Positions 5,120 through 10,811 of a DNA stretch of 32,176 bases are shown here, in pieces (the stretch's first letter is position 1; every line of letters starts with the position of its first letter). The translations under genes were made by a program, and so were the position numbers. Source of the DNA: a virus; UHGV virus genome UHGV-1443735; one strand, given 5' to 3'. The notes beneath the pieces are model-generated. The model did no database searches and was not told the origin of the DNA. It saw only the letters and a list, made by a program, of their open reading frames with translations.

Positions 5120-6088
5120 TTAGTAGGTTATTTTTGTTGCGAATACTTCGCCTTTTACGATGGCTGTTATGATATTTTTAGCAACATCTTCTGATGCGCC
5201 AACCTTGATAAGGTCAGCAAGTATTTTGTTATTTACTTCTTTCCGGTGAGCTTTATCCTTTGCTCTACACTCTTCTTCTTCCTTGATTCTTTTTTCTTCT
5301 GCTATTCTGGCTTGCTCTTTTGCTTCAGCCTCGCGCCGGATTCGTTCAGCCTCCTCCTGTGCTTTTCGGCGTTCTGCTTCAATTGCCGCCTGCTTTTCTC
5401 TTTCAGCTCGTTCTGCTGCCTCTTTTGCTTCGCGCTGTGCTCGTTGCTCGGCTTCAATGCGTTCACGCTCTGCACGTTCCGCTGCGGCCTTAGCTTCTGC
5501 TTCTCGCCTTGCTGCTGCTTCAATTTCGGCTTTTGCCTTTGCTTCGGCTTCTGCTCTGGCTTTCTCTTCAGCTTCTCTTTTTAAGCGTTCTTCATGCTCT
5601 CGCTTTTCCTGCTCCGCTTTGAGTCTTGCCTCTTCTCTTTGGCGGTCAAATTCGCGATCCATCAAAATAGCTATTTCATGGTCAGACTCAATTTGCTTTG
5701 CGAGAGCTTCAGCTGCTGCCTTAGCTTCTTCTTCGGCTTTAATCCGTGCCTGTTCCTCCTCATAATCAGTAAGAGGCTGGCGTGCCTTGGATTTCAGCTC
5801 ATCAAGGCGATCACGCACTGTCTTGCGGTTGGCATCAATTAGCTTTGGAATTTCCTTCAGTTCAGCAACAAGGTCTTTTCCAAGACCATCGAGATATGTT
5901 TTCGTCTGCGCAACTTTATACGCCAGAGAAGCGATCTCCTTTCTGCCCTTTGCCGTTGTGATATCAGGCACAAAGGACATAACTTCACGTTCAACCTTTT
6001 GAAGGATTTCTTCAATCTGGTCGGCAGACTGAAATACAGTCATTGCATTTGCTTTTTCAATAACAACTAAATCTGTTACTTCACTCAT
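5120..6088 (-). CDS. coiled-coil protein with TolA-like E/A/K/R-rich repeat region (about 322 aa)
   Basis: Start refined to ATG at 6088 with GGAGG at 5-nt spacing. The central ~130 residues are low-complexity charged repeats (AEAKAKAEIEAAARREAEAK...); N- and C-terminal regions are non-repetitive. Confidence 0.7.
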   Translation of the reverse strand: MSEVTDLVVIEKANAMTVFQSADQIEEILQKVEREVMSFVPDITTAKGRKEIASLAYKVAQTKTYLDGLGKDLVAELKEIPKLIDANRKTVRDRLDELKSKARQPLTDYEEEQARIKAEEEAKAAAEALAKQIESDHEIAILMDREFDRQREEARLKAEQEKREHEERLKREAEEKARAEAEAKAKAEIEAAARREAEAKAAAERAERERIEAEQRAQREAKEAAERAEREKQAAIEAERRKAQEEAERIRREAEAKEQARIAEEKRIKEEEECRAKDKAHRKEVNNKILADLIKVGASEDVAKNIITAIVKGEVFATKITY

Positions 6089-7280: not shown

Positions 7281-7469
7281 TTAACTATCATCAATACATG
7301 GCACTTTATTCCAGTCGATATCGTTTTTATTGTCGTCCCACATGTCTTTGTTTTTGTATTTCTCGCTACATCCTAGGCAAATGTTGTATGGCCTACCGAT
7401 AAGGTTTAACGAAATACGTTGCATTTCATTTGATTCAAACATGTATCCACAGAACTGACATTTATGCAT
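7281..7469 (-). CDS. small zinc-ribbon protein (62 aa; CxxC...CxxC)
   Basis: MHKCQFCGY...NICLGCSEKY carries two CxxC pairs; ATG at 7469 preceded by a GAGGGGTG RBS. Confidence 0.55.
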   Translation of the reverse strand: MHKCQFCGYMFESNEMQRISLNLIGRPYNICLGCSEKYKNKDMWDDNKNDIDWNKVPCIDDS

Positions 7470-7472
7470 ATC

Positions 7473-7609
7473 TCACCCCTCATACAGTAGCTTACTGCCT
7501 AATTTCATTTTCTGGCGACCAACACAAGTCACACCCATTTCACTGCGTGGCTTGCGGTAGCTCTACGAGAATCTTGTTTGCTTGTTCTTCCATATATCAC
7601 CTCAAATAA
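7473..7609 (-). pseudogene. recombination scar: 5-prime fragment of the membrane-protein gene fused to a 3-prime fragment of an N-like gene
   Basis: 7560-7609 is a near-identical copy (about 50 bp, including 34 identical nt) of 7167-7216, i.e. the RBS plus the first 12 codons of the 6751-7200 gene. 7528-7555 is 28 nt identical to 7849-7876 inside N, and the frame continues as KPRSEMGVTCVGRQKMKLGSKLLYEG*, an N-type C-terminus. Confidence 0.6.
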
Positions 7610-7647
7610 GTGGTTTGCTGCGAAAGTAAATACGCTTAAGTTACCTG

Positions 7648-7785
7648 TTATTTATCCCACCAAGTTCCGTATCTATCTATCCAGTTACACCAATCATCGA
7701 CACTCCATTTTGTTGTGTCGCATTTTGGCAACTGGCATGAATATCTACCTTCTTTGTAAAGTCGGCGTTTGACTTTCTTGAGCAT
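7648..7785 (-). CDS. small Cys-containing hypothetical protein (45 aa)
   Basis: Found by manual translation (MLKKVKRRLYKEGRYSCQLPKCDTTKWSVDDWCNWIDRYGTWWDK). ATG lies 8 nt after the N stop with a GAGGTGAG RBS; below the ORF-track cutoff. Confidence 0.3.
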   Translation of the reverse strand: MLKKVKRRLYKEGRYSCQLPKCDTTKWSVDDWCNWIDRYGTWWDK

Positions 7786-7793
7786 GGCTCACC

Positions 7794-8126
7794 TCAATCG
7801 TAATAAGCTGGAATTGATTTTCCGCGTTGCTTCTGGCGGCCTGAGCATGTCACACCCATTTCACTGCGTGGCTTGCTGTACCATGTGCGATGATTCTTGC
7901 GCTCAACAGCTTCAGCGCGTTTTTCCATCTCTTCCCGATACTCAGCCAGCACCGTTAAATCAATCGGGTTCAGAGCGCTTTCTACGCGTGATTTAGGCTT
8001 TCGAGTCAGCGAGAGAATTTTGCGGGTGTCTGGCTTGGCGCTTACCCCAACTAACAGGGGGTTTGCTGCTTTCCATTGAGCCTGTTTCTCTGCGCGACGT
8101 TCGCGGCGGCGTGTTTGTGCATCCAT
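7794..8126 (-). CDS. N: antitermination protein N, lambda type (110 aa)
   Basis: N-terminus MDAQTRRRERRAEKQAQWKAANPLLVGVSAKP matches lambda N (arginine-rich boxB-binding motif); RBS CAGGAGAATCCAG-ATG; nutL lies upstream. Confidence 0.92.
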   Translation of the reverse strand: MDAQTRRRERRAEKQAQWKAANPLLVGVSAKPDTRKILSLTRKPKSRVESALNPIDLTVLAEYREEMEKRAEAVERKNHRTWYSKPRSEMGVTCSGRQKQRGKSIPAYYD

Positions 8127-8394
8127 CTGGATTCTCCTGTCAGTTAGCTTTGGTGGTGTGGTGGCTGGTAGTCTAGCTCCAGCTTGTTGAGTCTCATTCG
8201 GAGGGGTATAACCGGCACCCCAGTGATTTTTCCATGCGACAACGTGCGCGTTATGGCGGCCTTATCGCCCGCGGCTCCCCATCTCGTCCACGCTATTGCT
8301 AGCGTTGGGAGCGCTTCACCGCTCAACAGTAGGTAAGCACTTGCCAGTGACTAGCTGGCTTCACCACACCCCAAAGCCTTCTGCTTTGAATGCT

Positions 8395-8424
8395 GCCCTT
8401 CTTCAGGGCTTAATTTTTAAGAGC
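8395..8424 (-). promoter_or_regulatory. nutL: nutL (boxA-like GCTCTTAAA, boxB GCCCTGAAGAAGGGC)
   Basis: Read on the minus strand, boxB is GCCCTGAAGAAGGGC (plus 8395-8409) with a boxA-like TGCTCTTAA just 5-prime of it, about 270 nt upstream of N, as in lambda. Confidence 0.85.
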
Positions 8425-8457
8425 ATCACCTTCATGGTGGTCAGTGCGTCCTGCTGA

Positions 8458-8493
8458 TGGCTAGATAATCACAAATTGTGTTCGTGCTGTCAA
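8458..8493 (-). promoter_or_regulatory. pL-like early leftward promoter
   Basis: On the minus strand: -35 TTGACA (8493..8488), 17-nt spacer, -10 GATTAT (8470..8465); overlaps two operator-like sites. Confidence 0.55.
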
Positions 8494-8528
8494 CACGAAA
8501 TGTGATTGTTTTTATCACAACACGTGTT
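8468..8528. promoter_or_regulatory. OL operator cluster: three 15-bp sites, ATCACA-N4-GTGTT (core CACR-N3-YGTG)
   Basis: Sites at 8468-8482 (ATCACAAATTGTGTT), 8492-8507 (inverted) and 8514-8528 (ATCACAACACGTGTT); three related sites recur in the OR region. Confidence 0.6.
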
Positions 8529-8564
8529 TTCATTGATTTTTAAGGTAATTTAATTTTCTTTGGG

Positions 8565-8598
8565 CAACAAAAAACCCGCCGAAGCGGGTTTGATGTTT
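8565..8598 (-). terminator. rho-independent terminator downstream of the repressor gene (hairpin flanked by A/T runs on both sides)
   Basis: Stem CCCGC/GCGGG with CGAA loop; the minus strand has a run of 6 T after it, the plus strand has TTTGATGTTTTT. Lies 26 nt past the cI stop and insulates pL. Confidence 0.7.
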
Positions 8599-8614
8599 TT
8601 AAGTGGCGGGTATA

Positions 8615-9256
8615 TCAGGAGAATTTCATCATCATCTGCACTGCTACGCCGATTATCTTGCAGTTGCCGTCGATTGGGATCAACGGATAGGCAGGGTTAA
8701 GCCCTTTCAGGTATTTGTTACCGCCATCAATGATTAGCTTCTTGAACGTGGCTTCATTAGCATCTGTCAGCTTCGCAACTACCAGGCTTCCATTAACGGC
8801 TTCCTTTCCAGTGTCGAACAGAACCAGCATACCCTCAGGAACGCTAAGGCCGGTAGGAGCTGTCATTGAGTCGCCCTGAACCCTGAGCCAGAAGGCGTCA
8901 CCGACAACGTGACAATCTGATTCATACCACTCATCCACTGCCTGAGGGTTGTACGGCTCTACGGCCTCACTCCATGCACCTGCGCTAACCCAGCTAATCA
9001 ACGGAAACTTTTCCCCTGGCTTGTATTGTCCCTGATAGTTGTCGCCAAAAAGCAGTTCTGCCGGAGCGACGCCCAAAGCTTTAGCTATTACCTCTGCGTC
9101 ATCAACACTAACGCTTCTGGTTCCTGATTCATAGTTGCCGATCCGAGATTGTGAAGCCCAGCCGCAAAGCTCCGCCAGCGCCTTCTGTGAAAGCCCTTTA
9201 TCTTCCCGTAATCGCTTGATACGCGCGGCGATAGTTTCTGTTCTGTTCATGCGCAT
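8615..9256 (-). CDS. cI: CI/C2-family prophage repressor (HTH_XRE N-terminal domain, S24 LexA-like C-terminal domain)
   Basis: HTH LSQKALAELCGWASQSRIGNYE, then a C-terminal domain (PLISWVSAGAW...VQGDSMTAP...LVVAKL...) with the Ser/Lys dyad, very similar to P22 C2. No RBS before the ATGs at 9256/9250, consistent with a leaderless pRM transcript. Confidence 0.9.
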   Translation of the reverse strand: MRMNRTETIAARIKRLREDKGLSQKALAELCGWASQSRIGNYESGTRSVSVDDAEVIAKALGVAPAELLFGDNYQGQYKPGEKFPLISWVSAGAWSEAVEPYNPQAVDEWYESDCHVVGDAFWLRVQGDSMTAPTGLSVPEGMLVLFDTGKEAVNGSLVVAKLTDANEATFKKLIIDGGNKYLKGLNPAYPLIPIDGNCKIIGVAVQMMMKFS

Positions 9257-9261
9257 TTTAT

Positions 9262-9323
9262 ATCACATTCCGTGGTTTAAGGCTTTACACGATTTGTGTT
9301 GACTATCAATCACAATATGTGTT
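9262..9323. promoter_or_regulatory. OR operator cluster: three sites of the same family
   Basis: Sites at 9262-9276 (ATCACATTCCGTGGT), 9286-9300 (TACACGATTTGTGTT) and 9309-9323 (ATCACAATATGTGTT), between the divergent cI and cro genes. Confidence 0.6.
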
Positions 9324-9328
9324 TAATA
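9299..9328 (+). promoter_or_regulatory. pR-like early rightward promoter
   Basis: -35 TTGACT (9299-9304), 17-18 nt spacer, -10 TTTAAT/TTAATA (9322-9328); overlaps two OR sites; cro RBS AAGGA follows. Confidence 0.5.
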
Positions 9329-9360
9329 AAGACTGAGTGAACTAGCTCTTAAGGAAACCT

Positions 9361-9576
9361 ATGAACAACATTGCCAACGAACGGAAAAAGCTTGGCATCA
9401 CTCAATCTGCGTTAGCAGGCGCGTGTGGCTGGAACCAGTCCCGCTTAGCTAACTACGAGTCAGGTATCCGGACTCCAGATTTAGAGTCGTGCCGTCGCCT
9501 GGTAAAGGCGCTGAATAAATTGGGGAGCAAGACAACGCTAGATGGCTTGTTCCCGCCGGAACACAAAGCCGCTTAA
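9361..9576 (+). CDS. cro: Cro-like HTH (XRE-type) repressor (71 aa)
   Basis: HTH LGITQSALAGACGWNQSRLANYESG; first gene rightward of OR, divergent from cI. Confidence 0.8.
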   Translation: MNNIANERKKLGITQSALAGACGWNQSRLANYESGIRTPDLESCRRLVKALNKLGSKTTLDGLFPPEHKAA

Positions 9577-9584
9577 GACATTCC

Positions 9585-9616
9585 CGCTCTTACACATCCC
9601 CGCCCTGAAAAAGGGC
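9585..9616 (+). promoter_or_regulatory. nutR: nutR (boxA CGCTCTTAC, boxB GCCCTGAAAAAGGGC)
   Basis: Both boxes match lambda nutR as I recall it (boxA 9585-9593, boxB 9602-9616); the following leader up to cII looks lambda-like (tR1 region). Confidence 0.85.
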
Positions 9617-9695
9617 ATCAAATTAAACCACACCTATGGTGTATGCATTTATTTGCATACATTCAATCAATTGTTATCTAAGGAAATACTTACAT

Positions 9696-9989
9696 ATGGT
9701 TCGTGCAAACAAACGCAACGAGGCTCTACGAATCGAGAGTGCGTTGCTTAACAAAATCGCAATGCTTGGAACTGAGAAGACAGCGGAAGCTGTGGGCGTT
9801 GATAAGTCGCAGATCAGCAGGTGGAAGAGGGATTGGATTCCAAAGTTCTCAATGCTGCTTGCTGTTCTTGAATGGGGCGTCGTCGACGACGATATGGCTC
9901 GATTGGCACGACAAGTTGCTTCGATTCTCACCAATAAAAAACGCCCGGCGGCAACCGAGCGTTCTGAACAAATCCAGATGGAATTTTAA
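9696..9989 (+). CDS. cII: transcriptional activator CII, lambda type (97 aa)
   Basis: MVRANKRNEALRIESALLNKIAMLGTEKTAEAVGVDKSQISRWKRDW... matches lambda CII; RBS TAAGGAAATACTTACAT-ATG. The ORF-track start at 9636 is an upstream extension. Confidence 0.92.
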   Translation: MVRANKRNEALRIESALLNKIAMLGTEKTAEAVGVDKSQISRWKRDWIPKFSMLLAVLEWGVVDDDMARLARQVASILTNKKRPAATERSEQIQMEF

Positions 9990-10010
9990 CTGCTTTCTAT
10001 GGAGTTAATT

Positions 10011-10811
10011 ATGGCAAAAAAACCTACACCAGACCAGGTAAAAAAGATTCGTTCCGGCATTACCAAGAAAATACGGTTTGAGGTTTTCAAGCGCGATGGC
10101 TTCAAATGCCAGTACTGTGGGAGTTCTGCGCCAGACGTCATCCTTCATGTCGACCATATCAACCCAGTTAGCAAGGGTGGCGATAACGACATGATGAACC
10201 TTATTACTTCTTGCGATAGTTGTAATGGCGGGAAAAGCGACAAACTGCTCAGCGATAACTCAATAATGGAAAAGCAAAGGCAGCAACTCCAGGAACTTAA
10301 TACCAAGCGAGAGCAACTGGAGATGATGATCAAGTGGCGAGATGGTCTTAAGAGCCTGAAAGACGATGTTGTTGATATTGTCGCTACCAAAATTGACGAC
10401 TGCATTGCGCCATTTACTGTTAATGACAATGGGCGAAAATCTATCAAGAGATGGCTTCGAATATATAAGCTTGAAGAAATCCTCGATGCGATTGAGATTG
10501 CTGCAGACAAAAAACTCACCCAAGAAATAACCCATGAGCTTACTGGTGAATTCTTTGAGTACATCCCTCGCATAGCAGCGACAAAAAGAAAACCGCCAAA
10601 AGAACAAAGGATTCTATACATCAGAGGAATCCTTAAAAACCGCATATATATCAATCAAAACCATGTAATGAGTTATCTCAAGGCATGGCTTTCATACGAC
10701 TTAGATCTCGATGAACTTACTGAGTTTGCGAAAACAGTACCTAACTGGACAACGTTCAAGGAGTGGGTATCTGAACGCATTCGTGAAGCTCAGGAAGAAC
10801 TCCCGTACTAA
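10011..10811 (+). CDS. HNH endonuclease (N-terminal HNH domain, uncharacterised C-terminal domain; about 266 aa)
   Basis: HNH motif CQYCGSS...HVDHINPVSKGG...CDSCNGGK; start refined to ATG at 10011 with GGAG RBS. The gene is AT-rich compared with the lambda-type cII flank. Confidence 0.8.
   Translation: MAKKPTPDQVKKIRSGITKKIRFEVFKRDGFKCQYCGSSAPDVILHVDHINPVSKGGDNDMMNLITSCDSCNGGKSDKLLSDNSIMEKQRQQLQELNTKREQLEMMIKWRDGLKSLKDDVVDIVATKIDDCIAPFTVNDNGRKSIKRWLRIYKLEEILDAIEIAADKKLTQEITHELTGEFFEYIPRIAATKRKPPKEQRILYIRGILKNRIYINQNHVMSYLKAWLSYDLDLDELTEFAKTVPNWTTFKEWVSERIREAQEELPY

Follow-up and report, generated by a model that had tools for sequence, protein, structure and literature searches.

The locus lies in the window, by which we mean the whole 32,176-nucleotide stretch of UHGV virus genome UHGV-1443735 that was analyzed. 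Reading of positions 7400 to 10400 revealed, in this order, an N gene on the minus strand, a long leader, a group of palindromes, a terminator, a repressor gene on the minus strand, a second group of palindromes, and the plus-strand genes cro and cII, followed in the window by a full complement of early and virion genes. The genes and transcription signals, together with the sources of their assignment, are as follows.

7794 to 8126, minus strand: N antiterminator, 110 amino acids (aa), lambda type at its N terminus (Pfam N36, E = 9e-23)
8174 to 8364, minus strand: 191-nt non-lambda cassette in the long stem of the N leader, in the left flank and outside the immunity module
8395 to 8425, minus strand: nutL, with boxB at 8395 to 8409 (GCCCTGAAGAAGGGC, as in lambda) and boxA at 8417 to 8425 (TGCTCTTAA; lambda, CGCTCTTAA), by base-level alignment
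8458 to 8493, minus strand: pL, with a −35 hexamer TTGACA (8493 to 8488), a 17-bp spacer, and a −10 hexamer GATTAT (8470 to 8465), by promoter scan (10/12 matches)
8572 to 8591, both strands: bidirectional intrinsic terminator with an 8-bp GC-rich stem and T runs on both strands, by terminator scan
8615 to 9256, minus strand: prophage repressor, 213 aa from the first ATG (Pfam HTH_3, 3e-14; Peptidase_S24, 3e-25)
9250 to 9264, minus strand: putative pRM, with a −10 element GATATA/TATAAA at 9264 to 9257 and a start near 9250, read from the sequence
9297 to 9325, plus strand: pR, TTGACT (9297 to 9302), a 17-bp spacer, and TTTAAT (9320 to 9325), read by eye
9361 to 9576, plus strand: cro, 71 aa, HTH_3/XRE fold (Pfam HTH_3, 1.3e-12)
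9585 to 9616, plus strand: nutR, with boxA CGCTCTTAC (9585 to 9593) and boxB GCCCTGAAAAAGGGC (9602 to 9616), both as in lambda, by base-level alignment
9696 to 9989, plus strand: cII, 97 aa, 96/97 identical to lambda cII
9704 to 9717, minus strand: cII box of pRE, TTGC-N6-TTGC
9938 to 9965, minus strand: oop terminator

Alignment to lambda by blastn divided the region into five segments, in which DNA homology to lambda is present on both sides of the repressor-cro module and absent within it.

7810 to 8173: 82% identity, N
8174 to 8364: no match, N-leader cassette
8365 to 8459: 98.9% identity, nutL to pL +1
8460 to 9582: no match, immunity module
9583 to 9985: 97.8% identity, nutR to cII

The initial annotation had proposed a non-lambda repressor, cro, and operator cassette between lambda-type N-nutL and nutR-cII, and this reading was borne out. 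The lambda alignment ends at 8459 and resumes at 9583, which places the breakpoints at 8459/8460, beside the inferred pL +1 at 8458, and at 9582/9583, just after cro; when phage 434 was used for comparison, the left junction was the same (8462), and the right one lay 18 bp further left (9565), within the last cro codons. The further description of N, nutL, nutR, and cII as lambda identical was nearly correct for the nut sites, which differ only in the first base of the nutL boxA and at two bases of the nutR spacer, and for cII, but it did not hold for N, which shares 79% aa and 82% DNA identity with its lambda counterpart, the first ∼60 aa being nearly identical and the C terminus divergent. 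The N36 peptide and the two boxB elements identical to those of lambda nevertheless mark the antitermination system as lambda type. The nutL boxB hairpin was also picked up by the terminator scan. In addition, a duplicated 3′ end of N was observed at 7473 to 7560, a sign of rearrangement to the left of the module.

To place the left junction among other phages, a 19-mer from the N leader was scanned against IMG/VR, which returned 53 contigs. Contigs with an identical lambda-type pL leader continue into at least four operator types (434-like, TAGTACGATTTGTACT, TATACCTACAGGTA, and the mEp213 type, the last in 4 contigs), and divergence from the window begins at 8463 to 8464 in every non-mEp213 case. 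The left junction therefore represents a shared linker for the exchange of immunity cassettes. Judged from these alignments, the chimeric look of the region is ordinary modular exchange at conserved linkers, namely, the pL transcript start on the left and the cro end and nutR on the right. Cassette exchange at such linkers is a well-known phenomenon, and joint transfer of cI and cro has been reported for the mEp collection (PMC9836094).

The cassette in the N leader is a separate non-lambda segment, which substitutes for 80 nt of lambda (35409 to 35488) and is 99.5% identical in Sf6, HK544, HK446, HK633, mEp043, and mEp213. The leader folds with a z score of −3.8, and its long stem, which we take to be the counterpart of the RNase III stem in the lambda N leader, retains both arms around the 191-nt segment. 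This segment was nearly invariant across 19 phage records and 60 Escherichia coli genomes; together with its stem (8148 to 8376, 229 bp), it was 100% identical in contigs with P22-type nutL and N, and one contig (L040) carried a tandem leader duplication with a third cassette of ∼105 nt. Application of RNAalifold to leader variants gave limited covariation, with two compensatory pairs in one hairpin, the diverged sequences being too few for a firm structure. Searches of Rfam at the gathering threshold across the whole window, and at an E value of ≤5 across 7700 to 10100, returned nothing relevant, only weak terminator look-alikes. A 60-aa TTG open reading frame (ORF) at 8144 to 8326 on the minus strand, annotated in phage Bas106, was rejected as a coding sequence, given an in-frame stop in one variant (L014), a frameshift in another (L019), and the location of 13 of 25 variable sites at codon position 2. 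The 191-nt segment looks like an exchangeable structured loop of the N leader.

Within the module, the repressor comprises an HTH_3 domain (residues 13 to 68) and a Peptidase_S24 domain (residues 85 to 206) according to Pfam, and its length would be 211 aa with translation from the second ATG (9250), the start codon chosen in the Bas106 annotation. Alignment to lambda CI structures located a predicted autocleavage site at Ala92-Gly93 and a Ser130/Lys172 dyad, with VSA92-G93AW corresponding to VQA-GMF of lambda, GDS130MT to GNSMT, and TFK172KL to TFKKL. An N-terminal helix-turn-helix (HTH) joined to a C-terminal S24 domain with an Ala-Gly site and a Ser/Lys dyad is the architecture of LexA/CI-type proteins. 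The two domains differ in their relationships: identity to P22 C2 was 30% in the N-terminal domain versus 60% in the C-terminal domain, and the corresponding values for lambda CI were 32% and 38%. Hence, the earlier reading of a P22 C2-like C-terminal domain behind an unrelated HTH, with an N-terminal domain that does not match lambda CI, is upheld, yet the C-terminal domain is closer to those of the 434, HK620, Sf6, and HK446 repressors (68 to 70%) and to that of a Serratia phage repressor (75%). At the DNA level, similarity to 434 cI (∼69%) was detectable over 8646 to 9015 only, that is, in the part coding for the C-terminal domain, so that mosaicism extends into the repressor gene itself, its two domains meeting in the hinge, near residue 80. 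The fusion is old, the nearest C-terminal domains being only 70 to 75% identical.

The cro product proved to be of the XRE type, as had been annotated. Its Pfam match was to HTH_3, and neither the lambda Cro family (PF09048) nor the P22 Cro family was matched in the same search; identity was 19% to lambda Cro and 24% to P22 Cro, compared with 32% to the N-terminal domain of the window's own repressor. A homologue with a solved structure was found in PDB 28tn (E = 3e-12). Moreover, the recognition-helix motif of cro, GW-QSRLANYE, matches that of the repressor, GWASQSRIGNYE.

Six operator-like sites, located by motif search, flank the repressor gene.

8468 to 8482: OL1-like operator ATCACAAATTGTGTT, center at −17 from pL +1; same in mEp213 and Bas106
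8492 to 8506: OL2-like operator AACACGAAATGTGAT, center at −41, overlapping the pL −35; same in mEp213
8514 to 8528: OL3-like operator ATCACAACACGTGTT, center at −63; same in mEp213
9262 to 9276: OR3-like operator ATCACATTCCGTGGT, overlapping the putative pRM −10; equivalent in five related phages
9286 to 9300: OR2-like operator TACACGATTTGTGTT, overlapping the pR −35; same in mEp213
9309 to 9323: OR1-like operator ATCACAATATGTGTT, overlapping the pR spacer and −10; equivalent in five related phages

The core pattern CACR-N3-YGTG was counted over the 32-kb window and in 100 shuffles, and it occurred 8 times versus 2.3 expected, with no shuffle reaching 8. Six of the eight cores fall in the two groups (8470 to 8480, 8494 to 8504, and 8516 to 8526 on the left; 9264 to 9274, 9288 to 9298, and 9311 to 9321 on the right). 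With the symmetric 15-mer AWCACRNNNYGTGWT and at most one mismatch, seven matches were obtained versus 1.14 expected, comprising the same six sites and a stray at 5810, whereas the looser ATCACANNNNGTGTT with two mismatches gave 15 matches versus 10 expected in the window and was uninformative. The full sites are 15-bp pseudo-palindromes, AWCACR-N3-YGTGWT, arranged in two triplets (8468 to 8528 and 9262 to 9323); all 12 half-sites read A-W-C-A-C-R, and OR2 and OR3 each carry one deviation from the consensus. Thus, the proposal of six non-lambda operator-like sites is supported by a motif that is essentially confined to two clusters, with few strays, in DNA without homology to lambda (8460 to 9582). 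No operators are annotated in the three records inspected (two of mEp213 and one of Bas106), and in the searchable literature we found neither binding, footprinting, or transcript-mapping studies of the repressor or cro of the window or mEp213 nor operator mapping for mEp213 or H-19B-type repressors.

The geometry of these sites relative to the promoters is that of a lambdoid tripartite OL/OR layout, with three spaced pseudo-palindromes at pL and three at pR/pRM. Measured between centers, the left triplet is spaced by 24 and 22 bp and the right triplet by 24 and 23 bp; the lambda coordinates give 24 and 20 bp and 24 and 23 bp, respectively. Homology with the start of the lambda pL transcript (ATCAGCAGG) puts the pL +1 at 8458, and the left centers then lie at −17, −41, and −63, compared with −17, −41, and −61 in lambda; from the inferred pR start, the right centers lie at −17, −40, and −64, which also fits lambda. 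The layout of three sites over pL and three over pR/pRM had been noted from the start, and it stands as a layout, but overlap with the pL hexamers is limited to OL1 and OL2, while OL3 lies upstream as in lambda. The pR promoter was absent from the promoter scan solely because the scan accepts nothing but an A as the second base of the −10 hexamer. With a pRM +1 at 9250, the centers of OR3, OR2, and OR1 would lie at −19, −43, and −66 (lambda, −19, −42, and −66), and this agreement suggests that the repressor mRNA may be leaderless or nearly so, starting at the second ATG (9250) and yielding the 211-aa product. Between the repressor stop and OL3 (8529 to 8614), the ORF listing contained no ORF, so that the rex genes are missing there, as had been observed, and the bidirectional terminator at 8572 to 8591, with A/T runs on both sides, occupies the position of lambda rexA-rexB-timm.

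To look for the same sites beside related repressors, tblastn was run with the repressor N-terminal domain, and the 3.2-kb loci of five relatives with 53 to 67% identity in this domain were inspected, namely, Citrobacter phage Chris1, Salmonella phage S107, coliphage mEpX1, Edwardsiella phage GF-2, and Aeromonas phage pAEv1818. In the repressor-cro intergenic region of all five, CACR-N3-YGTG occupies the OR1 and OR3 positions, and a more degenerate site lies in between. An OL triplet with spacings of 22 and 24 bp was seen in GF-2 as well, a single additional site follows the repressor gene in both Chris1 and pAEv1818, and the pattern was not found elsewhere within these 3.2-kb loci. The surrounding intergenic DNA differs among the five phages, which come from five host genera. 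Family alignments showed that the repressors share LCGW..SR.GNYE and the cro proteins share GW.QSR..NYE; these motifs and the CAC-N5-GTG core are both conserved, and the protein motif and the DNA core therefore go together. The recurrence of the sites in five relatives supports their assignment as putative operators. The same N-terminal domain was found on three C-terminal modules. That of the window is an S24 domain of the P22/434 class; S107, mEpX1, and GF-2 have an S24 domain of the lambda class, whereas Chris1 and pAEv1818 end in a short tail that is not S24.

In a megablast search with positions 8400 to 9700, mEp213 (three records, JQ182733, NC_019720, and PV340538) and CurroJimenez_Bas106 matched over the full length at 99.6%, and ECP1 matched at 98.5%. 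The window differs from mEp213 by 5 mismatches in 1,301 bp, of which a single one, synonymous and at 9179, lies inside the module (8460 to 9582). The repressor is 100% identical in amino acids over both halves (83 and 131 aa), cro has no mismatches over 9361 to 9576, and all six 15-bp sites are the same. Among complete E. coli genomes, 14 of 5,426 carried the module at full length. Phage mEp213 was sequenced in 2012, and Bas106 comes from Swiss sewage. The former, isolated in Mexico in the 1990s, is part of the Mexican phage collection published by Kameyama et al. 1999. Experiments place this viable phage in an immunity group of its own (PMC3442831). Since the cassette is the known mEp213 immunity region, the chimera is a catalogued immunity type rather than a new one.

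Gene content, sites, positions, and identity to mEp213 together make it very probable that a temperate, P22-like lambdoid phage or prophage of E. coli has its lysis/lysogeny switch here, in an immunity module of the mEp213 type. Three other readings were weighed against this one. The six palindromes could be chance or promoter-associated sequence, with something else serving as the true operators; their operator role is a prediction, they overlap AT-rich promoter DNA, and a near-match exists at 5810. Such a reading is nonetheless highly improbable in view of the shuffling result (0/100), the uniform half-sites (12/12), the lambda-like spacing of 22 to 24 bp, and the recurrence in five relatives. 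That the module is a decayed, nonfunctional remnant in a cryptic prophage would agree with the possibility that the window is a prophage and with the nearby duplication of the N 3′ end (7473 to 7560), but we regard this as quite unlikely: all ORFs are intact, the repressor and cro are the proteins of the plaque-forming phages mEp213 and Bas106, the promoters, nut sites, terminator, and cII/pRE are all present, and complete early and virion genes adjoin.

It might also be supposed that a recent recombination between lambda and a P22-like phage created a new immunity specificity unique to this genome, and flanks with 98 to 99% identity to lambda around a center without lambda or P22 DNA homology, as well as a P22/434-class C-terminal domain on an unrelated N-terminal domain, would suit such an origin. 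However, the cassette with its flanks already exists in mEp213 and Bas106 (99.6%) and in ECP1 (98.5%), the module recurs in 14 of the 5,426 E. coli genomes, and the domain fusion is old; a unique recent recombinant was ruled out by these matches and by the occurrence in E. coli genomes. The element is thus an already sequenced and phenotypically defined immunity type, that of mEp213, carried in a P22-like mosaic backbone, and as such it is already known.

For this mEp213-type module, a switch can be proposed whose mechanism is drawn from lambda and 434, the pRM position, leaderless start, cooperative binding, and order of site occupancy all being assigned by analogy. Repressor dimers would bind the 15-bp AWCACR-N3-YGTGWT sites through HTH_3, and occupation of OL1/OL2 and OR1/OR2 would block pL and pR. 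Repressor at OR2 would activate the weak and probably leaderless pRM, OR3 would shut pRM at high repressor levels (negative autoregulation), and the repressor transcript would stop at the terminator at 8572 to 8591. Upon DNA damage, RecA-stimulated self-cleavage at Ala92-Gly93 by Ser130/Lys172 would be expected, and Cro, with nearly the same recognition helix, may bind the same sites and lock in lytic growth. N would act at nutL and nutR to lengthen the transcripts from pL and pR, and the establishment of repressor synthesis would depend on cII at pRE.

Beyond annotation, the result is of little consequence. Placement in the mEp213 group would predict which phages are excluded as well as SOS inducibility, and the analysis supplies operator, promoter, and junction coordinates that are unannotated in the two mEp213 records and in Bas106. 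The module is, moreover, a clean textbook case of linker-bounded modular exchange combined with domain shuffling inside the repressor gene. A wider implication, which we put forward as speculative and rather doubtful, concerns the family across Escherichia, Salmonella, Citrobacter, Edwardsiella, and Aeromonas phages, the Stx1 phage VT1-Sakai/mEpX1 type among them, which may use one A-W-CAC-R half-site. The half-sites of mEpX1 are near-identical to those of the window, and mEpX1 and mEp213 are listed as separate immunity groups (PMC3442831). Should their specificity depend solely on non-core bases, whether flanking or central, prophages residing in the same cell might partly cross-repress one another or show anti-immunity, and such cross-talk could include Shiga toxin phages.

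Among the known systems, P22 immC resembles the module in its C-terminal domain (60%) and in its compact layout without genes between c2 and OL, but its Cro, its N (gp24), and its nut sites are of other types, blastn of the window against the P22 immC locus gave no match, and the identities of the N-terminal domain (30%) and cro (24%) set the module apart from that type. The likeness to lambda extends to operator number and spacing, promoter geometry, the S24 residues, and the nutL, nutR, cII, pRE, and oop flanks (98 to 99% identical), whereas lambda has an OL-OR distance of about 2.4 kb (about 0.84 kb in the window), a Cro of another fold family, and rex genes; with an N-terminal domain at 32% and no DNA homology across 8460 to 9582, the module is not imm-lambda. 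Phage 434 comes closer, having an HTH_3 repressor with S24, an HTH_3 paralogue as Cro, three OL and three OR sites, the same left junction at pL +1, and 68.5% protein identity in the C-terminal domain, but its N-terminal domain and 14-bp operators are unrelated (ACAAGAAAGTTTGT type versus ATCACA-N3-TGTGTT in the window), and the interval from cI to OL holds the hex gene in 434 but only a terminator in the window. The relationship to mEpX1/VT1-Sakai (Stx1 phage), S107, GF-2, Chris1, and pAEv1818 lies in the repressor N-terminal domain (53 to 67%) and cro (54 to 64%). The mEp213 backbone is that of a lambda-like siphovirus (Aguilavirus), whereas the window, like Bas106, is P22-like, has an extra ∼320-bp insert at the 3′ end of N, and differs in its replication genes beyond 9898; outside the module itself, mEp213 shares with the window the lambda-type nutL, nutR, and cII flanks as well as the N-leader cassette.

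Within the leader of the N gene, the conserved long stem was found to carry a non-lambda cassette, the feature being as follows.

8174-8364, minus strand: non-lambda cassette of 191 nt, enclosed by the stem at 8148-8376.

At the place taken by this cassette, lambda has 80 nt. The cassette was nearly invariant among 19 phage records and 60 Escherichia coli genomes, and in contigs with a P22-type nutL and N, the cassette region was 100% identical to that of the window. Folding of the N leader gave a z score of -3.8, and two compensatory pair changes were observed, both in one leader hairpin. An Rfam search returned no match. The 60-aa open reading frame annotated in the N leader of Bas106, a phage with a near-identical immunity module, was rejected as coding. 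At the adjoining nutL, the first base of boxA (window 8425) was polymorphic between otherwise near-identical phages, being, on the transcribed strand, T in the window, C (the lambda base) in mEp213 and G in Bas106.

In one IMG/VR contig (IMGVR_UViG_3300045988_069239), the N leader occurred as a tandem duplicate around the match at 1834-2062. Copy 1 contained the 191-nt cassette, and copy 2 contained a different cassette of ∼105 nt between the same stem arms; the alternative loop cassettes thus number at least three.

Within 7473-7880, N is duplicated at its 3' end, with GTCACACCCATTTCACTGCGTGGCTTGC at 7529-7556 and again at 7848-7876, and the N remnant ending in YRKPRSEMGVTCVGRQKMKLGSKLLYEG before the stop is the counterpart of the mEp213 stretch encoding the N C terminus. 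Compared with mEp213, the window has ∼320 bp inserted (7560-7830), inside which one open reading frame was located.

7648-7785, minus strand: open reading frame of 45 aa.

Immediately to the right of cII and oop, and ahead of the replication genes, lies a further open reading frame.

9999-10811, plus strand: HNH endonuclease open reading frame of 270 aa (Pfam HNH, 1e-13).

Several HNH genes are carried by related P22-like phages (Louie, Dewey). In the assemblies of E. coli 0H24, 0H25, and 0H26 (NZ_CP081778, NZ_CP081694, and NZ_CP081786), the immunity module was both chromosomal and on a second record of 29.7 or 39.4 kb classed as a plasmid; this second record probably represents the phage genome in excised circular form, assembled separately.

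Outside its two clusters, the operator 15-mer had a sole near-match in the window, ATCACGCACTGTCTT at 5810-5824, with the YGTG arm broken, and this lone stray is consistent with the chance expectation of 1.14. Comparison of the repressor (8615-9256) with those of Chris1, S107, mEpX1, GF-2, and pAEv1818 revealed one N-terminal domain family, having one operator core, joined to three different C-terminal modules, the hosts of this N-terminal family spanning five genera. For cro (9361-9576), a homologue with a solved structure was found over the full length (PDB 28tn, "lambda repressor-like protein," 82 aa, E = 3e-12), its recognition helix differing from that of the window cro. mEpX1 and mEp213 have almost identical operator half-sites, yet they are listed in different immunity groups (PMC3442831).
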